In this document: positions 5,787 through 26,480 of the stretch, in pieces | How the letters are laid out: each line of letters begins with the position of its first letter | Position numbering within the stretch: the stretch's first letter is position 1 | Source: Candidatus Aminicenantes bacterium | GTDB taxonomy: Bacteria; Acidobacteriota; Aminicenantia; Aminicenantales; Saccharicenantaceae | Assembly: GCA_963843505.1 (NCBI GenBank) | Contig: CAWJKR010000013.1 | Span: forward strand, 146,350 to 210,349 | Length of the DNA: 64,000 nucleotides | Reading direction: 5' to 3' | Notes under the pieces: model-generated | Seen by the model: the letters and a program-made list of their open reading frames with translations, nothing else | The model's database searches: none | Told to the model about the DNA's origin: nothing | Program-made: the position numbers and the translations under genes

Positions 5787-7196
5787 TCAATAGGCCCCGA
5801 TCCCGAACAGGACGACGGGCACGGTCTTCAGGAGGATCTTGGCGTCGAGCCAGAGCGACCAGTTGTCGAGATACTCGAGATCGAGCTTCATCCAATCCTC
5901 GAAGGCGATGTTGTTCCGGCCGTTGACCTGCCAGAGGCAGGTGATGCCGGGCTTCATCGAGAAGCGGCGCCTCTGCCAGTCCTTGTACTTCTCGACCTCG
6001 TCGGGGACCGTCGGCCGGGGGCCGACGATGCTCATGTGGCCGACGAAGACGTTGAACAGCTGGGGCAGCTCGTCGATGCTGAATTTCCTCATGAATCGGC
6101 CGACGGGCGTGATCCATTGCGTCTTCTTCTCCCGGAATTCCGGCGTGGTCATCGATTGGAGGTCGGTGACGTCGGACAGGACGTCGTGGGCGCCCTGGCG
6201 CATCGTCCGGAACTTGTAGAGCGTGAACCTCCGGCCGGCGAGGCCCAGCCGGTTCTGCTTGAAGAAGACGGGCCCCTTCGAGGTCGTCTTGATGAGGACG
6301 GCCATGATGAGAAAGAGCGGGGACAGGACGAGGATCCCCAGCCCGGAGGCCGCGAAATCGAAGAGCCGCTTGATGAGAAGCTCCCACTCCTTGGCGTGGG
6401 TCGTCTTGAAGTGGAGCAAGGGCAGGCCGTCGAGCTCGGCGACCGAAGATCTGGCCAGCTTCGTGTCGAAGAGGTCGACGGCGACGGTCACCACGACCCC
6501 TTCGGTCTCGCAGTCTTCGATCGCGCCCTGGAGGGAGTTCAGGCGCGACCGGGGAACGACGAAGACGACCTCGTCGACGGCGTCCCGGTGGAAGATCCTG
6601 GGGATGTCCTCGAGCGTGCCGATGACGTCCAGCCGGCCGACCCGGGTGGACGCCGCGGCCGGGCTCGTCGTCGATGGCCCCGAGGACCTCGAATCCCCAC
6701 TCGGGATGCTTGTCGGCCTTCTTGACGAACTCGACGGCCCGCTTGCCCGTCCCGACGACGAGCAGGCGGCGCGTGTTGAGCCCCTGGCGGCGGACGTAGT
6801 GCGAGCTCATGAAGATGGCCGTCTTCTCGAGCCAGATGAACAGGAAGCTCAAGCCCATGAAGAGCATGAAGAAGAGCCGGCTCATGAATTGGAGCTTGAA
6901 GAGGAAGATGAACGTCCCGAGCAGCAGGAACGTCACCACGGCGGCCTTGATCACCGCCCAGAGGATCTCGAGATAGGAGCGGGTCCTCATGGACTGATAC
7001 ATGCCGTTCGCGTAGAGCGCCAGGCACCAATAGGGAATGGCGAAGGCGAGGGCATGCCAGAATTTCAGGAGGGGGACGGGGGGCTGGCTGAGAAGGTTAT
7101 TGAACGAGATAGGCGAAGAGGTAGGCCAGGACGAGGACGCAGGCATCGACAGAAGATCAGGAACCTGCGGAGAACGGCTTCCCTCTCCTTGAACAT
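5787..7196 (-). CDS. Polyprenyl-phosphate sugar phosphotransferase (WcaJ/EpsL-type initiating transferase), frameshifted
   Basis: ORF 5787..6494 carries the bacterial sugar-transferase domain (LIKRLFDFAASGLGILVLSPLFLIMAVLIKTTSKGPVFFKQNRLGLAGRRFTLYKFRTM, DELPQLFNVFVGHMSIVGPRP). The N-terminal TM region is in 5758..7146 (LLKFWHALAFAIPYWCLALYANGMY). ATG at 7196 gives MFKEREAVLRRFLIF. At least 3 frame changes. Confidence 0.85.
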
Positions 7197-7234
7197 CGCT
7201 TCAAACCCCTCTGTCTCAAAAGCTCCCCGATTAT

Positions 7235-7715
7235 CTACTTTTTTTCGATCTTGCGCAAGACCTTGGCCGGGTTTCCGGCCACGATCGTCCAGGGGGGGAC
7301 GTCCTTGGTCACGACGGATCCGGCCCCGACGATGGCCCCCTCGCCGACGGTCACGCCGGCCAGGATCGTCGCGCTCGAGCCGACCGAGGCGCCCTTCCTG
7401 ATGAAGGTCGGGACGACCTTCCAGTCGGCTTCGGTCTGGAGCCCGCCGCCCTCGGCGGTCGAGCGCGGATACATGTCGTTGATAAAGGTGACGTTATGGC
7501 CGATGAAGACATCGTCCTCGACGGTCACGCCCTCGCAGATGAAGGTGTGCGAGGAGATCTTGCAGTTCTTGCCGATGAAGGCGTTCTTCTGGATCTCGAC
7601 GAACGTCCCGACCTTGGTGTCGTCGCCGATCGTGCAGCCGTAGAGGTTGACGAAGGCGAAGATCTTGACGTCCTTCCCCAGCTTGACGTCGGGCGATGAC
7701 TCTGCAGAATTCCAT
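7235..7715 (-). CDS. Left-handed beta-helix (hexapeptide) N-acetyltransferase, WbpD/WlbB-like
   Basis: The tail of ORF 7235..8746 reads DVKLGKDVKIFAFVNLYGCTIGDDTKVGTFVEIQKNAFIGKNCKISSHTFICEGVTVEDDVFIGHNVTFINDMYPR...GAIVGAGSVVTKDVPPWTIVAGNPAKV. The ATG at 7715 is one base out of frame with the body. Confidence 0.8.
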
Positions 7716-7725
7716 GGGTGCTCCT

Positions 7726-8746
7726 TTACAGCTCGATCCTCTTGCCGCCGTGCTTGAGGGATTCGTCCGCGGCCTCGAGGAGGCGGACGACCTGGAGCCC
7801 GGCCTGACCGTTGTTGAAGGGCTCCTGGCCCTTCTCGACGCATTCGACGAAATACTGGGCCTCGGCCTTGAGGGCCTCGGTCGCCTCGAGCTTGGGGATG
7901 TGGACGTCGCCGGACCGGTAGCTGACGAGAAGCTCGTGGATCCCGTCCTTGCCCCCGTTGGCGCTCTTGACGTCGACGCCCCGGTCGTAGATCTTGACCT
8001 TCTCGTCGGCGTCGAGGTCGTCCCAGACGAGCATCTTCTTGTCGCCGCTGATCAGGGTCTTGCGGATCTTGACCGGGCTGAGCCAGTTGACGTGGAAGTG
8101 GGCGATGAAGCCGTTGCCCTCGAACTCGACGGAGACGTAGGCGATGTCCTCGTAACCGTCCCTCGAAATGGACGGAGCCGTGGGCCGCCAAGGCCACCGG
8201 CTTCTTGTCGATGACGTGGGCCATGATGGACAGATCGTGGGGCGCCAGGTCCCAGATGACGTTGACGTCGTGCTGGAAGAGCCCCAGGTTGACCCGGACC
8301 GAGTCGTAGAAGAGGAGCTTGCCCAGCTCGCCCGAGTCGATGACCTGCTTGATCTTCTTGACGGCGCCGGTGAAGAGGAAGGTGTGGTCGACCATGATCC
8401 TGAGGTTCTTCTCGGCGGCGAGGTCGATGAGCTCCCGGGCCTGGGCGCTCGTCGAGGTGAACGGCTTCTCGACGAAGATGTGCTTTCCCGCGAGGAGCGC
8501 CGCCTTGGCCATCTCGTAATGGGCGAAGACCGGCGTGACGATGGCCACGGCGTCGACGTCCGTGGACCGGATGAGGTCCAGAGGGTCTTTCAGTCCCTTG
8601 ATGAAGGGAAACTGGTTCTGGGCCAGGGCCAGGCGCTTCTCGGAGATGTCGCTGACCGCGACGAGCTTGGCCCCGGTCGCGGCGTGGAAATTCCGGGCCA
8701 CGTTGGGCCCCCAATAGCCGTATCCGACGACACCGATATTAAGCAT
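7726..8746 (-). CDS. Gfo/Idh/MocA oxidoreductase, WbpB/WlbA-like sugar-nucleotide 3-dehydrogenase, frameshifted
   Basis: N-terminus MLNIGVVGYGYWGPNVARNF...HIFVEKPFTSTSAQARELIDLA (Rossmann fold). C-terminus in ORF 7726..8034 (LVSYRSGDVHIPKLEATEALKAEAQYFVECVEKGQEP). Frame changes near 8160 and 8035. Confidence 0.8.
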
Positions 8747-12824: not shown

Positions 12825-13112
12825 ATGAACATGGCTAGCCACGATGCCACAGCCGTCAAATCTTCCATAAGGGACTTCCTCACGCATTCCGTCATGCCTC
12901 TGGCGAGGGTCGACGCTTTCAGGGACGATGAATCGTTCCTCGAACGGGGCATCCTCGATTCCACGGGCGTCCTGGAGCTGGTCGGATTCATCGAGAAGCA
13001 GTTCTCCGTCCGCGTCGAAGCCGATGAGATCACTCCCGACAACCTCGATTCCCTTGAAAAGCTGGCGGCCTTCGTGTCGCGGAAGACGGCCGCGGCGGGA
13101 CCCCGAGGCTAG
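12825..13112 (+). CDS. Acyl/peptidyl carrier protein (DltC-like)
   Basis: 95-aa ORF with the phosphopantetheine-site context GILDSTGVLELVGFIEKQF. RBS GAAGGAG precedes it. The stop lies 2 nt before the algD-like start. Confidence 0.8.
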   Translation: MNMASHDATAVKSSIRDFLTHSVMPLARVDAFRDDESFLERGILDSTGVLELVGFIEKQFSVRVEADEITPDNLDSLEKLAAFVSRKTAAAGPRG

Positions 13113-16915: not shown

Positions 16916-18707
16916 ATGCCAGGGCTTGTCGGGATCATCGGGACGGGGCCCGCGGGCCTCCTTCGGGAAGAGCTCCGCCGTATGACCGCCTGCATGTACA
17001 GAAGGGATTCTTTCGCTTCCGGGACCTACGTCGACGAGAGCCGGCACGCCTATGTCGGGTGGACCTGCCACCCCGGCTCCTATGCGGACGGCCTGCCTAT
17101 CAGGAGCTCTTCGGGCGATGTCACGGTGTTCTTCGCGGGAGAACACCACGGCCCGGTGGGGAGCGATGAGAAGGCCGAGATCCTCCTGCCGCTCTACCTC
17201 GAAAAGGGCGAATCGTTCTTCCCCCATCTGAACGGCTTCTTTCACGGCTTGATCATCGATGCCCGCAACGACGAGGTCATCCTGTTCGATGACCGCTTCG
17301 GCATGCAGCGTCTCTATTATCATGAAGAGCCCGAAGCCTTCTATTTCGCGTCCGAGGCCAAGTCCATCCTGGCCGTGCGCCCGGAGCTGCGGGCCTACGA
17401 TCTCAAGGGCCTCGGCGAATGGCTGAGCTGCGGGGCCGTCCTCGATCATCGCAGCCTTTTCCGGGGCATCGATGTCCTCCCCGGGGCGGCCCGCTGGACC
17501 TGGCGCCGGGACGCCCCTCTCCAGAAGCGGACCTACTTCACGCCGAAGTCCTGGGAGGGCCTGCCGAAGCTCGGGCCGGAGGAGTTCTATTCGCGTCTGC
17601 GCTCGACGTTCGTGTCGAGACTTCCCGCCTATCTCCGAGCCGAGGGGACGATCGGATTGTCCGCGACGGGCGGATTGGATACGCGGATGATCCTGGCCAA
17701 CCTGGGGGCCGGATCAAGCGCGATCCACTGCTATTCGTTCAATGGGCCCTATCGGGAGAATCTCGACGTCTCGATCGGCCGGCGGGTCGCCCGGGCCGTC
17801 GGGCTGCCTCACACGACGGTCACCATCGGGGAGGATTTCTTCCGCCGATTCGACCAGATCGCCAACGACGTCGTCTCGAGCACGGACGGCAACCTGGAAA
17901 TGAGCGGAGCGCCGAACATCTACGTGAATCGGATCGGCCGGGAGATCTCGCCCATCCGGTTGACCGGGAACTACGGCAGCGAGGTCCTGCGGCGGCACGT
18001 CGCCTTCTCCCCGTCGAACTCGATCCGCCGGGTGCTCCGGAAGGAGTGGGCCGAATCCGTGGAGAACACGGCCGCTGTCCTGGCAGGCCATCTCCCGCGA
18101 TCATCCCTTGAGCTTCGTGGCCTTCCGGCAGATCCCCTGGTACAGCTTCAACCGGCTGCAGGCCGAGCAATCGGTCCTGAGCATGCGGTCTCCGTTCATG
18201 GATAACGCCTTTCTGGAGATCGTCTACCGGGCGCCGGAGAAGTGCACCCAGTCCCGGGACATCAGCCTGCGCCTCATCGCCGACGGCGACCGGAGGCTGG
18301 GGGAGATCATGACGGACCGGGGCGTCACCTATCCCCGGAAGCCCTCCTGGATCTGGACGAGGGCCTATTATGAGTTCATTTTCAAGATGGAGTATTACGC
18401 GAGCCACGGGATGCCGAGGTTCCTGGCCTCGATCGACAGACGCCTGGGGCCCTTCGGCCTCGAACGCAACTTCCTGGGACGGAACAAGTACTATCATCTC
18501 CACAAATGGTTCCGCGACGAGCTCGCGCCTTATGTGAGAGATATCCTCCTCTCTGAAAGGGCTTTGTCGAGGGATCACCTCGAACGCCGCGAAGTGATCA
18601 AGGCGGTCGAGGCGCACCTCGCCGGCACCGAAAACAACACCTATGCCATCGACGCCTTATTGACCGTGGAGCTCACGAACAGGCTCCTCCTGGACGGCGG
18701 CTCATGA
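16916..18707 (+). CDS. Asparagine synthase (AsnB)-family amidotransferase homolog lacking the N-terminal Cys nucleophile
   Basis: It starts MPGLVGIIG where AsnB has MCGI. Ntn-domain pattern: FFAGEHHG, FHGLIIDARNDEVILFDDRFGMQRLYY. PP-loop-like GLSATGGLDTRM. C-terminal half is in 18108..18707. One frame change near 18100. Confidence 0.75.
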
Positions 18708-18747
18708 CGCCGCGCCGCAACTTGACAACCGGACCGATTGCCGCATA

Positions 18748-19749
18748 ATGATTTCACCCATGAAGACGTCCGGCCGCGGAAGCGGGAGAGAGACCACCGA
18801 GATCAGCGTCGACGGGAGGTTCCTCACGGTCCCTGCGGTCGTCCTCGACACGGTCACGGTCGCCGTCACGGGCCGCTTCCTCCGGACGGGGTTCATCAAG
18901 GGCGAGGGGTGGCTGGATCCGCGCCAAGTGGGCACGCCCGAGAGCATCGTCGAGGCGCTGAAGCAGAGACAGGCCCCGCTGGACCTCTTCGTGTTCCATC
19001 AGCGGCTCCCCGAGATCGAACCCCGGTACGCCTATCCTCATGAACGGGAGAATGTCGCGGCCATTCCCCTGACCACGTTCGAGGCCTGGTGGGAAGGCCG
19101 GGCTTCCCAGGTCACGCGAAAGAACGTCCGCCGGTCGGTCAAGCGCGGCGTCGAGGTTCGCCGCGTCGATTTCGACGATCGCCTCATCGAGGCCATCGTC
19201 CGGATCAACAACGAAATGCCCTTCCGGAACGGACGGAAGTTCTGGCATTTCGGAAAGGGCTTCGACGCGGTCAAGAAGGACTATTCGGCCTATCTCGACC
19301 GCAGCGAGTTCCTCGGCGCCTTCCACGACGGCGAGCTGATCGGATTTCTGCGGCTCATCGACCAGGGCGAGGTGGCCAGCATCATGCAGCTGCTGAGCCT
19401 GAACAGCCACTCCGACAAGCGGCCCTCCAACGCCCTGATCGCCAAGGCCGTGGAGCTCTGTGTGGAGAAGGGGAAGACGTTCCTCGCCTACGGCCAGTAC
19501 CTCTACGACGATGACGCCGATAACCCCTTGACGGAATTCAAGAGACGGAACGGCTTCGAGGAATTCCTCGTCCCGGTCTTTTTCGTCCCTTTCACATTCC
19601 GGGGGAGGGCCGCGATCAAGCTCCATCTGCACGCCGGGGTGCGGCGGCTGGTCCCGCGGAGGCTCTTGAAGACCGCGCGGACGGTCAGGGCCAAGGTCTT
19701 CGAGCGGCGAAAGAAGGCCGTTACGCCGGATTCGCCTGAAGGAGAGTAG
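18748..19749 (+). CDS. GNAT-fold protein of the FemAB/CelD-like (Acetyltransf_6-type) group
   Basis: Intact 333-aa ORF. Block TRKNVRRSVKRGVEVRRVDFDDRLIEAIVRINNEMPFRNGRKFWHF...EFLGAFHDGELIGFLRLIDQGEVASIMQLLS...ALIAKAVELCVEKGKTFLAYG. Family assigned by pattern only. Confidence 0.45.
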   Translation: MISPMKTSGRGSGRETTEISVDGRFLTVPAVVLDTVTVAVTGRFLRTGFIKGEGWLDPRQVGTPESIVEALKQRQAPLDLFVFHQRLPEIEPRYAYPHERENVAAIPLTTFEAWWEGRASQVTRKNVRRSVKRGVEVRRVDFDDRLIEAIVRINNEMPFRNGRKFWHFGKGFDAVKKDYSAYLDRSEFLGAFHDGELIGFLRLIDQGEVASIMQLLSLNSHSDKRPSNALIAKAVELCVEKGKTFLAYGQYLYDDDADNPLTEFKRRNGFEEFLVPVFFVPFTFRGRAAIKLHLHAGVRRLVPRRLLKTARTVRAKVFERRKKAVTPDSPEGE

Positions 19750-19774
19750 CCCGCCGGAAGCGATCGGTGTGTGA

Positions 19775-19847
19775 GCCGGTGTAGCTCAATGGGCAGAGCA
19801 GCTGAGAAGTTTTCAGCAGACGGAGCGTTCGATTCCTCCCGCCGGCT
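19775..19847 (+). tRNA. tRNA-like gene, positional anticodon AGT (Thr?), non-canonical anticodon loop; possibly specialised, pseudo or assembly-damaged
   Basis: Cloverleaf folded by hand. Acceptor GCCGGTG/CGCCGGC (7 bp including one G-U). D arm GCTC-AATGGGCA-GAGC. Anticodon arm GCTGA-GAAGTTT-TCAGC. T arm GGAG(C)G-TTCGATT-CCTCC. Discriminator U, no encoded CCA. The loop has G32 A33 instead of Y32 U33, and the T stem carries one extra C (19826). Confidence 0.6.
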
Positions 19848-19886
19848 TGATCCTTTCGGGACTTCGGGATACCGGGAACGTGAAAA

Positions 19887-20699
19887 GTGCTCATCATCAC
19901 AGCGGACGACCTGGGCCGGGATCGAGCGGCCACGGATTCCTGCCTGTCGTGTTTCCGGCAAAAGAGGATCACCTCCGCGAGCCTCATGGTCTTCATGGCC
20001 GACTCGGAACGCGCCGCCGAGCTCGCTGAGAGAGAGGGCCTGGAAACGGGGCTTCATCTCAATCTGTCCCTGAGCTATGAGGCCCCCGGGGTCCCCGAGA
20101 GCGCGCGGCGGGCCCAGGACGCGGCCGTCCGTTTCTTTCAACGGGGCCCCTGGACCCAGGTCCTCTATAATCCCTTCATCGCCAGAGCCGTCGCCTCGGC
20201 TTTTCAAGCCCAGCTCGACGAATACCGCCGACTCCTCCGAAGGGACCCCGCCCATATCAACGGGCACAAGCACTTTCATTTGAGCATCAACATGATCTTC
20301 GGGGGCGTCCTGCCGGCCGGCTCGAAGGTCCGGAGGAGCTTTACCTTTTATCGGGGCGAGAAGGGACCGCTCAACAGGGCCTACCGTCGCCTGCTCGACG
20401 CCTGGCTGATCAAGAGGCATATTTCCACCGACGCCTTCTTCAGCCTCAGCCCCACCGACGACGCGCCGCGGCGGGCCCGGATCCTCCGTCTTGCGCAGAC
20501 GCATTGCGTCGAGCTCATGGTCCACCCCTGGAGCCCGGATCATTATGCGCTTCTGACCGGAGGGGCGTTCCCGCCTTCAGCGGCGTCCGCCGTCTTGGGG
20601 AGCTTCTCCGATCTCGGATCCAAGCCGGAAGCCGGTCCCGGCCCTTCATCCCGCGAGGGCCGCCCCGCCGGCCGGCTCAGCGGGACACCATCTCCTTGA
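19887..20699 (+). CDS. YdjC/ChbG-family carbohydrate deacetylase
   Basis: GTG start. LIITADDLGRDRAATDSCLSCFRQKRITSASLMV...HINGHKHFHL matches the YdjC signature (xIxxADDFG, H-x-H). Confidence 0.75.
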   Translation: MLIITADDLGRDRAATDSCLSCFRQKRITSASLMVFMADSERAAELAEREGLETGLHLNLSLSYEAPGVPESARRAQDAAVRFFQRGPWTQVLYNPFIARAVASAFQAQLDEYRRLLRRDPAHINGHKHFHLSINMIFGGVLPAGSKVRRSFTFYRGEKGPLNRAYRRLLDAWLIKRHISTDAFFSLSPTDDAPRRARILRLAQTHCVELMVHPWSPDHYALLTGGAFPPSAASAVLGSFSDLGSKPEAGPGPSSREGRPAGRLSGTPSP

Positions 20700-25370: not shown

Positions 25371-26480
25371 ATGCACCGCCGTTATGACGGCCTGATCGCG
25401 GACATCAACGAGGCCTCCGAGGCCGAATGGGCCGAAGCCTTGACCTCCTTCGCCGACGCGAGCATCTATCAGTGTTGGCCCTACGGAAGCGTCAAATGGG
25501 GCGCTGGCCATAACGAACATGTCGTCTTGAAGAAGGACGGGACCGTCCTGTCCCTGGCCCAGGTGGCGATCGTCAAGCCCCCCATCCCGGGAGTGGGGAT
25601 GGCCTACGTGACGTGGGGGCCGCTCTGGAAGAGGAGAGGCCTCCCTCCCGACGAAGCCCCCTTCCGGTCGATGTTGGAGGTCCTGAAGGACGAATACGCC
25701 CATCGCCGCAAGCTCCTGCTCAGGATCAAGCCCTACGGCTTCGAAGAGACCGACGGGGCGATGAGGTCCGTCCTGGAACAGGCGGGCTTCCTCCCCACCC
25801 GAGGGGTCCAGAAAGCGAAGAAAAGGACCATTCTGGTCGACCTGGGCCCCTCGCCCGATGAGATGAGGAGAAGGCTGTCCAAGAAATGGAGGAACAGCCT
25901 GACCAACAGCGAGAAGGAGGGCCTCACGGTCAAGGAAGGATTCTCGGGGCAGCCGCTGGGCGCCATCCAACCGATGTATCATGCCCTCATGAAGAAGAAG
26001 AACTTCTCCGGATGGGACCTGGATGAGCTGGCTCGGATCCAGGATCTGCTCGAAGGCCGCCAGAAGATGCGGATCAGCACCTGCGAAGAGGAAGGCCGGA
26101 CCATCGCGGCTTCCGTCTGCTCCGCGCTCGGAGATACGGCGGTCGGCCTCATCGGGATGACCAGCGACGAGGGCCGGAAGAGAAGGGCCTACTATCTTCT
26201 CCAGTGGGACGAGATCCTCTGGGCCAGGAAGATCGGCGCCGCGACCTACGATCTCAACGGGATCAATCCCGAGACGAATCCGACGGTCTATCACTTCAAG
26301 TCCGGCCTCAACGGCGACGAGGTCACGCTCCTGAGCGTCTATGATTATTGCCGGAGCCGGTGCCTTTCCTTCCTCATCGATCGGGCCGAACGCCTCGTCG
26401 ATTTGAAACTGGCCAAGGTGTTCCTGCGGCTGGCCAAGGGCCCCTTCCGACGGCCGCCGGGACGCTCCGCGGACCTTTAG
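25371..26480 (+). CDS. FemAB-family-like protein (aminoacyl-transferase fold, EPS-locus type)
   Basis: Intact 369-aa ORF with RBS AAAGGAG. IYQCWPYGSVKW...RRLSKKWRNSLTNSEKEGLTV...YYLLQWDEILWARKIGAATYDLNGINP...VYHFKSGLNG. Family assigned by pattern only. Confidence 0.55.
   Translation: MHRRYDGLIADINEASEAEWAEALTSFADASIYQCWPYGSVKWGAGHNEHVVLKKDGTVLSLAQVAIVKPPIPGVGMAYVTWGPLWKRRGLPPDEAPFRSMLEVLKDEYAHRRKLLLRIKPYGFEETDGAMRSVLEQAGFLPTRGVQKAKKRTILVDLGPSPDEMRRRLSKKWRNSLTNSEKEGLTVKEGFSGQPLGAIQPMYHALMKKKNFSGWDLDELARIQDLLEGRQKMRISTCEEEGRTIAASVCSALGDTAVGLIGMTSDEGRKRRAYYLLQWDEILWARKIGAATYDLNGINPETNPTVYHFKSGLNGDEVTLLSVYDYCRSRCLSFLIDRAERLVDLKLAKVFLRLAKGPFRRPPGRSADL

Follow-up and report, generated by a model that had tools for sequence, protein, structure and literature searches.

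A bulged tRNA-Thr-like gene beside a tandem-GNAT protein in bacterial glycan clusters: a likely dedicated aminoacyl donor

INTRODUCTION

Dedicated tRNAs that stay out of translation have so far been essentially one narrow case, the tRNAGly species that staphylococci use in peptidoglycan synthesis. The non-proteogenic tRNAGly isoacceptors of Staphylococcus aureus bind EF-Tu poorly owing to their T-stem pairs, are preferred by FmhB by virtue of determinants in the D and T arms, and form a lineage found solely in staphylococci (PMC7826273; a second source for this precedent is PMC3239215). Here we describe a tRNA-Thr-like gene with a bulged T stem in a stretch of 64,000 nucleotides (nt) from a Candidatus Aminicenantes bacterium (GenBank assembly GCA_963843505.1, contig CAWJKR010000013.1, positions 146,350 to 210,349 of the forward strand; the whole stretch is called the window hereafter), the protein encoded just upstream of it, which we named FAM, and the family of similar tRNA genes found beside FAM homologues. 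We consider it likely that this tRNA is a dedicated, non-translating threonine donor, charged by threonyl-tRNA synthetase (ThrRS) and used by FAM for glycan decoration.

The staphylococcal species, named NP1-3, are extra isoacceptors served by the normal synthetase. Their genes sit in tRNA/rRNA clusters and are not known to lie beside fem genes. Like them, the family described here deviates in the D and T arms, and it adjoins a Fem-fold enzyme. NP1-3 carry glycine for peptidoglycan on a regular T stem with weak pairs, whereas the present family is mostly of threonine type and has a bulged T stem. Unlike the NP1-3 genes, its members abut or overlap a transferase open reading frame (ORF), lie in Wzx/Wzy-type glycan clusters and occur in nine named lineages. 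With its threonine identity, its other scaffold and its non-staphylococcal hosts, the window tRNA does not belong to the staphylococcal tRNAGly lineage, which it resembles in its proposed function.

A one-base bulge in the T stem has been seen in some of the minor 8/4 tRNASec, selC* tRNACys (with A51a) and acidobacterial allo-tRNA species, which are likewise non-canonical bacterial tRNAs from soil metagenomes (PMC5389517, PMC7609411). These species have 8/4 or 9/3 acceptor/T structures and a long variable arm, their identity is that of Ser, Sec or Cys tRNAs, and they are discussed as translation-active or linked to toxin-antitoxin systems (PMC5389517, PMC7609411). In contrast, the family described here has a 7/5 structure, a pyrimidine bulge beside G53-C61, a short variable loop and Thr or Gly identity, and is linked to a transferase. 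Neither the bulged tRNA family nor its pairing with FAM is described in the literature that we searched (full text, few subscription journals). Fem-type transferases served by donor tRNAs of their own that stay out of translation are thus a known principle, to which the present case adds a new tRNA architecture, transferase family and acceptor pathway and a layout fused into an operon.

RESULTS AND DISCUSSION

The tRNA-like gene of the window

A sequence-only reading of the window had pointed to a 73-nt cloverleaf, its distances from the two neighbouring ORFs, its 7-nt anticodon loop, an extra C in the T stem and the pairs G1-C72 and C2-G71, and all of these can be read directly from the sequence of 19775-19847 (+): GCCGGUG-UA-GCUC-AAUGGGCA-GAGC-A-GCUGA-GAAGUUU-UCAGC-AGAC-GGAG-C-G-UUCGAUU-C-CUCC-CGCCGGC-U. 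The gene begins 25 nt past the TAG stop of the FAM ORF (18748-19749), ends 39 nt before a YdjC-like ORF and does not encode CCA. The tRNA call itself holds as well. ARAGORN reports a tRNA-Thr(agt) at 19774-19848, the sole tRNA of the 64-kb window, and in a 221-nt local region the Rfam tRNA model (RF00005) scores 44.1 bits (E 1.4e-8) against a gathering score of 29. Run with default settings on the entire 64-kb window (gathering threshold, standard filters), Rfam does not report the gene, so routine annotation may overlook members of this family. With the family covariance model R1, the score is 86.1 bits (E 6e-21).

If a bulge in the T stem is allowed, the gene fits an acceptor stem of 7 bp, a D stem of 4 bp and anticodon and T stems of 5 bp each, and the minimum free energy (MFE) structure given by RNAfold is a cloverleaf with just such a T stem. 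The bulge is a single nucleotide on the 5' strand, beside the loop-closing pair. The tRNA elbow is formed by D-loop G18-G19 with T-loop U54-U55-C56; the window tRNA has GG in its D loop (AAUGGGCA) and UUCGAUU as its T loop. Decoding requires U33 and a purine at position 37 within a 7-nt anticodon loop, and the window loop has neither, carrying A33 and U37. In the RNAfold structure, G32-U38 and A33-U37 pair, leaving a triloop of AGU.

The deviations are not assembly noise

The window is a noisy sequence. Compared with a syntenic contig (L081, 87% identical), at least five of its genes between 8965 and 18722 (GT4, asparagine-synthase-like, DegT, Wzx and hyp389) are each split by frameshifts, a pattern typical of uncorrected long-read assembly. 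GT4 is broken into five frame segments relative to L081, and the asparagine-synthase-like gene of L081 itself seems to be frameshifted at its N-terminus. The suspicion of indel noise voiced in the sequence-only reading is therefore justified for the window in general, but not for the tRNA. The window tRNA aligns without a gap with those of L202, L081, L001 and L002, whose FAM proteins are 96, 87, 68 and 52% identical to the window FAM, respectively. These five independent assemblies agree in every base of the anticodon arm GCUGA-GAAGUUU-UCAGC and in the extra T-stem base, while the spacers flanking the tRNA are unalignable in the two most distant loci. Since the aberrant loop is identical in five assemblies while its flanks diverge, it is under purifying selection. 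By this comparison of sequences, the oddities of the loop and of the T stem are not assembly noise. An indel-damaged tRNA-Thr or a pseudogene, once thought equally possible, is rejected on the identity of the loop and the extra base in five assemblies and on the compensatory changes around the bulge described below. A pseudogene or the remnant of an att site is ruled out by the complete, covarying cloverleaf inside an operon.

A family of tRNAs with a bulged T stem

The register of the T arm was tested on an alignment of 59 tRNAs adjoining FAM homologues. With a bulge between the fourth and fifth T-stem pairs, 100% of the T-stem cells pair; in the textbook register 65.5% do, and one 'pair' is never formed. 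Twelve T-stem cells have changed on both sides, for example from A-U to G-C, and one A-U pair shifts by a step along the stem. Counting all stems of the 59 members, 99.6% of the cells are paired when the one-base bulge is allowed. The pairs G1-C72 and C2-G71 are invariant (59/59).

Family statistics were taken from 126 distinct tRNAs, 80 of them metagenomic, and the anticodon-loop counts from the 125 that have a 7-nt loop. Because the metagenomic tRNAs were picked by a T-arm/acceptor motif, their T-arm statistics are non-independent, and those of their anticodon and D loops are independent. The T-stem bulge is a pyrimidine in 123 of the 126, and the discriminator is U73 in all but one (125/126). 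The D loop is 7 nt long in 117/126 and lacks GG in 112/126. In the anticodon loop, G35 (118/125) and U36 (119/125) are kept, and U33 is present in just 95/125, being absent in 30 (C in 19, A in 11). A pyrimidine occupies position 37 in 21/125. The wobble position 34 is C, U or A; a lone G belongs to the tRNA-Asn-like gene of locus L101 described below. Most members encode CCA, and those of the window's clade do not. At two loci the bulged tRNAs stand in tandem as identical copies or copies that differ by one base (L003, 6982-7057 and 7145-7220; L015, 6973-7048 and 7163-7238). As read from these sequences, the family pattern is that the elements read by the synthetase are kept and those needed by the ribosome are relaxed.

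The tRNA and FAM genes are linked in both directions

We collected 297 loci of FAM relatives (one genome per species) and examined the best 80. In 62 of these best 80 loci, FAM is followed by a family tRNA in the same orientation, as detected with ARAGORN and the covariance model. These loci come from Verrucomicrobiota, Acidobacteriota, Nitrospirae, Aminicenantes, Dormiibacterota, Methylomirabilota, Oscillospiraceae/Eubacteriales, Betaproteobacteria and Syntrophobacteraceae, nine differently named lineages in total. In the reverse direction, the T-arm/acceptor motif GGRGYGTTCAAWTCCYCCCGCCGGCT matched at least 120 metagenomic contigs, of which 80 were examined; all 65 motif contigs with at least 600 nt of upstream sequence have a FAM homologue upstream on the same strand (65/65). 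By a rough estimate from about 50 tRNA genes per several Mb, a tRNA gene within 200 nt of a given gene is rare by chance. Non-conservation in homologous loci, which the sequence-only reading had named as a ground for giving up its idea, is thus not borne out, and the idea itself, a dedicated, translation-incompetent donor tRNA, is supported by this comparative linkage together with the pattern of identity and decoding elements. A phage origin of the tRNA was rejected, the motif having no match in viral contigs.

Amino-acid identity

The recognition set of Escherichia coli ThrRS is G1-C72, C2-G71, G35 and U36. The window tRNA carries all four elements, as had been pointed out from its sequence, and the family keeps them. 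Because they are kept, we propose that ThrRS charges the window tRNA with threonine. More generally, tRNA-Thr identity resides in acceptor-stem pairs and anticodon nucleotides (PMC9976931).

At four genomic loci (L034, L051, L079 and L080), the bulged scaffold has G1-C72, C2-G71, G3-C70 and U73 together with the anticodon UCC. The bacterial glycine identity set consists of G1-C72, C2-G71, U73, C35 and C36; G3-C70 is listed as a glycine element for the archaeon A. pernix only (PMC9976931). These sequences suggest that the identity can switch from Thr to Gly on one scaffold. Two residues of FAM vary along with the tRNA. Positions 125 and 249 (window numbering) are K125/G249 in 105 of the 114 Thr-linked proteins, R/(C or R) in all four Gly-linked proteins (4/4) and R/(C, Y or H) in 18 of the 22 proteins from loci that lack the tRNA. 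At 54–58% identity, the Gly-linked FAM proteins resemble one another no more than they resemble Thr-linked ones. This co-variation is suggestive of the tRNA being a substrate of FAM, and phylogeny may confound it. Among the metagenomic tRNAs, two (L084 and L147) combine the Thr-type acceptor GCCGGUG with C35-C36 anticodons (ACC, UCC), and another (L092) has an irregular loop. These three may be intermediates of the Thr-to-Gly switch.

Could the gene simply be a housekeeping tRNA-Thr, located in the operon by chance or for a bldA-like tuning of translation, with odd features that are sequencing indels? ARAGORN and Rfam both call a tRNA, the window has many frameshifts, and most members keep U33 and A37 and encode CCA, all as such an origin would have it. 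However, it leaves unexplained why the aberrant loop and the extra base recur in five assemblies, why nearly all members have the bulge, with covariation, why the motif occurs only beside FAM in the examined sample, why U33 and the purine at position 37 are lost so often, why the wobble base varies freely between U, C and A, and how the same scaffold came to switch to glycine. We regard a housekeeping tRNA as very improbable, and as largely refuted by these observations.

Transcript layout

Distances between the FAM stop codon and the tRNA were measured in 92 loci, with a median gap of 26 nt. The FAM frame ends within the tRNA, 10–30 nt from its start, in 20 of the 92. It appears to cross the entire tRNA in about 40 other loci, as judged from missing distances and confirmed in six of the seven loci inspected, which adds about 25–30 codons to FAM. 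Loci without a FAM stop before the tRNA, of one kind or the other, include L021, L029, L030, L039, L056 and L072; the window is not among them. Gene callers will over-extend such ORFs. Since the FAM frame so often runs into or through the tRNA, co-transcription is very likely. Where the two overlap, cleavage by RNase P would leave the FAM mRNA without a stop codon. In the window, no terminator-like site was found between FAM, the tRNA and the YdjC-like gene, and a promoter-like match precedes FAM (Table 1).

This layout would also suit a tRNA-shaped processing or regulatory element, at which RNase P and RNase Z cut the polycistronic mRNA and thereby limit or uncouple the expression of FAM and of an asparagine-synthase-B-like (AsnB-like) gene nearby. 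The tRNA lies inside an operon devoid of a terminator-like site, the FAM frame ends in it or crosses it in roughly half of the loci, and its place is always between or beside FAM and the AsnB-like gene. Yet a processing element has no need for G35-U36, U73, an encoded CCA or a coordinated switch to glycine, and the co-variation of two FAM residues with tRNA identity would be left unexplained. As the sole function of the gene, processing seems quite unlikely to us, although it is compatible with a role as a donor.

FAM resembles aminoacyl-tRNA-dependent transferases in its predicted fold

FAM has no match at E 1e-3 in Pfam or NCBIfam. Its sub-threshold Pfam matches are Acetyltransf_1 (E 0.0073) and Acetyltransf_6 (PF13480; E 0.027; 15.1 bits against a cut-off of 22). 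At E <=1e-3 we found 2818 clusters of homologues (90% identity), which are called 'hypothetical' where they are named at all. All named records are metagenome-assembled genomes (MAGs), and no cultured host was identified among them. The start codon may be the ATG at 18760.

An AlphaFold (AF2) model of FAM made with 27 homologues (mean predicted local distance difference test score, pLDDT, 87.1; predicted template-modelling score, pTM, 0.82) has two GNAT-like halves and a basic C-terminal helix. In a Foldseek search of the PDB, the top matches are only Sba18/Sbb17, Weissella FemX, S. aureus FemX/FemA and MprF domains. These aminoacyl-tRNA-dependent transferases match with E of about 1e-10 and template-modelling (TM) scores of 0.49–0.54; acetyl-CoA-dependent tandem GNATs in the list have TM scores of 0.29–0.41. 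The GNAT motif for binding coenzyme A (CoA) is Q/R-x-x-G-x-G/A. In its place, FAM has a conserved D-K-R-P-x-N-A (residues 223–229).

The tandem-GNAT fold is common to FAM and the FemX of Weissella viridescens and FemA/FemX of S. aureus (Foldseek hits 2–8, 11 and 45; TM 0.49–0.54). These enzymes use an aminoacyl-tRNA donor, but the sequence match of FAM to FemAB (PF02388) is not significant, and FAM has the basic helix at its end instead of the long coiled-coil arm of FemA. A peptidoglycan precursor is an unlikely acceptor for FAM because of the gene neighbourhood. The best Foldseek match is Sba18 (PDB 9wqy; E 1.2e-10, target-normalised TM 0.61). Sba18 and Sbb17 (PDB 9wqy, 9wqx and 9wqw) are aminoacyl-tRNA-dependent peptide synthases with a fold like that of FAM, and the MprF aminoacyl-phosphatidylglycerol synthase domains align with TM scores of 0.48–0.54. 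Both groups move an aminoacyl residue from tRNA to a small-molecule or lipid acceptor, not to peptidoglycan, and their structural alignments with FAM have a sequence identity of just 11–15%. We know of no dedicated tRNA for the Sba18/Sbb17 or MprF enzymes, and in a 2026 review of aminoacyl-tRNA-dependent enzymes in natural product biosynthesis the terms 'dedicated' and 'tRNA gene' are absent.

FAM is thus Fem/MprF-like by its predicted fold, not a Pfam FemAB protein by its sequence, and the former label 'FemAB/GNAT-like' stands in the first sense and not in the second. A TacT-like GNAT toxin acting on aminoacyl-tRNA was rejected on gene context, protein size and fold, with no antitoxin-specific search.

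The glycan cluster and the AsnB-like partner

In the window, the cluster is a glycan locus of the Wzx/Wzy type, whose products include a DegT aminotransferase, Wzy_C, GT2, GT4, a UDP-sugar dehydrogenase, a Wzx flippase, GNAT and MBOAT proteins and a second Fem-like protein. Coordinates of the main features are given in Table 1. The constant neighbours of FAM are the AsnB-like gene (77/80 loci) and Wzy_C (58/80). The commonest order is FAM, tRNA, AsnB-like, (GT2), Wzy_C; in the window's clade it is AsnB-like, FAM, tRNA, YdjC. Homologues of the YdjC-like protein are encoded near FAM in 18/80 loci, and the pair of GT2 and YdjC-like genes could point to a deacetylated amino sugar as the acceptor.

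Table 1. Features of the tRNA–FAM locus, in window coordinates
Feature	Position	Strand	Basis
Asparagine-synthase-B-like gene, frameshifted near 18100-18200	16916..18707	+	Pfam GATase_7 + Asn_synthase
Sigma-70-like promoter match TTGACA, 16-nt spacer, CATAAT (11 of 12)	18722..18749	+	consensus match only
FAM, 333-aa tandem-GNAT protein, predicted aminoacyl-tRNA-dependent transferase	18748..19749	+	predicted fold
tRNA-Thr-like gene, positions 1-73	19775..19847	+	ARAGORN, Rfam, family covariance model, MFE fold
Anticodon loop G32 A33 A34 G35 U36 U37 U38	19806..19812	+	read from sequence
T arm GGAG, bulged C (19826), G, loop UUCGAUU, C, CUCC	19822..19839	+	bulged-register pairing
YdjC-like gene, putative sugar N-deacetylase	19887..20699	+	Pfam YdjC E 2.7e-28
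Second Fem-like gene	25371..26480	+	Pfam FemAB E 4.1e-11

In the window and in L202, the AsnB-like protein starts with MPGLVG, so that the glutaminase nucleophile Cys2 is replaced by Pro. The same Pro2 start (MPGI/LxG) was found in the AsnB-like proteins of 59/61 loci. A PP-loop-like motif (a variant of SGGxDS) is present in those of 109 loci, most commonly as TGGLDT (67). From these motifs, the glutaminase domain is probably dead and the adenylating domain active. Lacking Cys2 and having the PP-loop-like motif, the enzyme probably forms an amide from a carboxylate and an amine that is not ammonia released from glutamine. Glutamine-independent AsnB homologues include the lasso-peptide cyclases, to which the AsnB-like protein has a weak match, and beta-lactam synthetases. 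By analogy with these homologues, the partner probably carries out an ATP-dependent, amide-forming step on the same product as FAM.

An exopolysaccharide (EPS) locus that has both a Fem-like and an AsnB-like protein, as here, is known from the XrtA/PEP-CTERM systems, with the FemAB-like protein TIGR03019 and the amidotransferase TIGR03108. The AsnB-like partner matches TIGR03108 with E 4.8e-18 but with 65 bits against a cut-off of 817, and FAM has no NCBIfam match. To our knowledge, no tRNA takes part in the described PEP-CTERM system.

The regular presence of the AsnB-like gene suggests a further possibility, namely that the tRNA is a carrier for modification before transfer, comparable to Asp-tRNAAsn, Sep-tRNACys and Ser-tRNASec. 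The AsnB-like enzyme would activate a carboxylic acid, uronic or otherwise, by adenylation and attach it to the alpha-amine of Thr-tRNA, and FAM would then transfer the N-acylated residue. In addition to the almost constant AsnB-like homologue without the glutaminase Cys and with the PP-loop-like motif kept, the cluster encodes a UDP-sugar dehydrogenase. Moreover, in four loci with 0.6–2.8 kb inserted after FAM (L014, L017, L057 and L071), the tRNA still lies about 300 nt upstream of the AsnB-like gene. On the other hand, none of our results separates this carrier order from one in which transfer comes first and amide formation later, and we know of no AsnB-family enzyme that acts on aminoacyl-tRNA. 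We judge the carrier scheme to be unlikely.

Other Fem-like genes and tRNAs were found near FAM. The second Fem-like gene at 25371, noted already from the sequence, is verified by its Pfam FemAB match; it has homologues in 3/80 loci. With ARAGORN, no tRNA was found beside it in the window or in these three loci, the only tRNAs called being family copies. L101, a contig that additionally holds FAM and a bulged tRNA-Thr, has another Fem-like gene at 7224-8216 (-), which encodes 330 aa (Pfam FemAB, E 1.4e-11). Directly after this gene, with an overlap of about 10 nt, there is a tRNA-Asn(GUU)-like gene (7159-7233, -) that has U37 in its loop CUGUUUA, a D loop of 7 nt, an unbulged T stem, G73 and CCA. 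Given L101, the layout of a Fem-like gene with its own tRNA may be more general. In L007, a MAG of Verrucomicrobiae, a 93-nt type-II tRNA-Ser-like gene (5898-5990, +) lies immediately upstream of FAM; its anticodon loop has 8 nt and is reported as 'gcaa' by ARAGORN.

A 95-aa ORF is located just upstream of the UDP-sugar dehydrogenase gene in the window (12825-13109, +). Its homologue in L081 reaches 21.8 bits (E 2.4e-4) with Pfam PP-binding, for which the cut-off is 20.8, which suggests a carrier-protein-like component in the glycan cluster. For hyp389 and hyp364 there were sub-threshold matches only.

A probable donor tRNA for glycan decoration

We propose the following scheme for the likely donor tRNA. 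The tRNA would be co-transcribed with the preceding FAM gene and excised from the operon transcript, and in the window's clade the CCA-adding enzyme would supply its CCA. The housekeeping ThrRS would charge it with threonine, and FAM would use the resulting Thr-tRNA to aminoacylate an intermediate of the cluster's Wzx/Wzy-type glycan. The acceptor might be a sugar amine exposed by the YdjC-like deacetylase. With its bulged T stem, a 7-nt D loop that usually lacks GG and a relaxed anticodon loop, the tRNA would be poorly accepted by EF-Tu and the ribosome, so that the donor pool would avoid competing with translation. The same deviations may double as recognition marks for the transferase.

Several points weigh against this scheme. 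The support for a donor tRNA is comparative throughout, and that the bulge affects binding to EF-Tu is our inference. U33 is retained in about three quarters of the members and a purine at position 37 in most; such tRNAs could decode if EF-Tu accepts them. If the predicted closure of the anticodon loop to a triloop is real, it may impair the reading of G35-U36 by ThrRS. The high identity of the tRNA sequences across phyla could be due in part to the horizontal spread of the cassette. FAM has no Pfam FemAB (PF02388) match, and sequence and profile searches of the PDB with FAM returned generic GNATs only. Finally, 18 of the 80 FAM loci have no tRNA within 6 kb by the covariance model (E <=1), so that a tRNA beside FAM is not strictly required. 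Two of these 18 contigs end within about 260 nt of FAM, and the tRNA-less loci mainly represent one acidobacterial arrangement. In the 12 that were aligned, the FAM stop abuts the AsnB-like start, leaving no degenerate remnant of a tRNA.

The donor scheme can be extended, though we hold this extension to be doubtful. FAM, the marked tRNA and the Cys-less AsnB-like ligase might form a self-contained aminoacylation cassette orthogonal to translation, in which the tRNA would act as a carrier similar to an acyl carrier protein (ACP) and not as a decoder. The tRNA identity, which is Thr or Gly and perhaps Asn in the case of the Fem-like gene of L101, would co-evolve with the pocket of the transferase. 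The cassette would equip the extracellular glycans of abundant uncultured soil phyla with amino acids in amide linkage, which may form cross-links. In view of the frequent overlap of the transferase ORF with the tRNA, synthesis of the enzyme and maturation of the tRNA from one transcript may be mutually exclusive in such a cassette, giving a built-in control of their ratio.

CONCLUSION

The logic known from staphylococcal tRNAGly would recur here in a broader form, as a marked tRNA joined to a transferase family that lacks annotation and comprises about 2800 clusters of homologues. The glycan clusters concerned occur in nine named lineages that dominate soils, Acidobacteriota and Verrucomicrobiota among them. 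If the donor reading is true, genes of this family have been tallied as ordinary tRNA-Thr or missed, and the transferase ORF has often been over-extended through the tRNA; the bulged T arm together with FAM would then be a sequence signature for finding such pathways. The tRNA and its enzyme would be a natural translation-orthogonal pair with switches between Thr and Gly, useful for studies of tRNA evolution and for engineering. For the bacteria themselves, the pair would be a new route for placing amino acids on polysaccharides or glycolipids.

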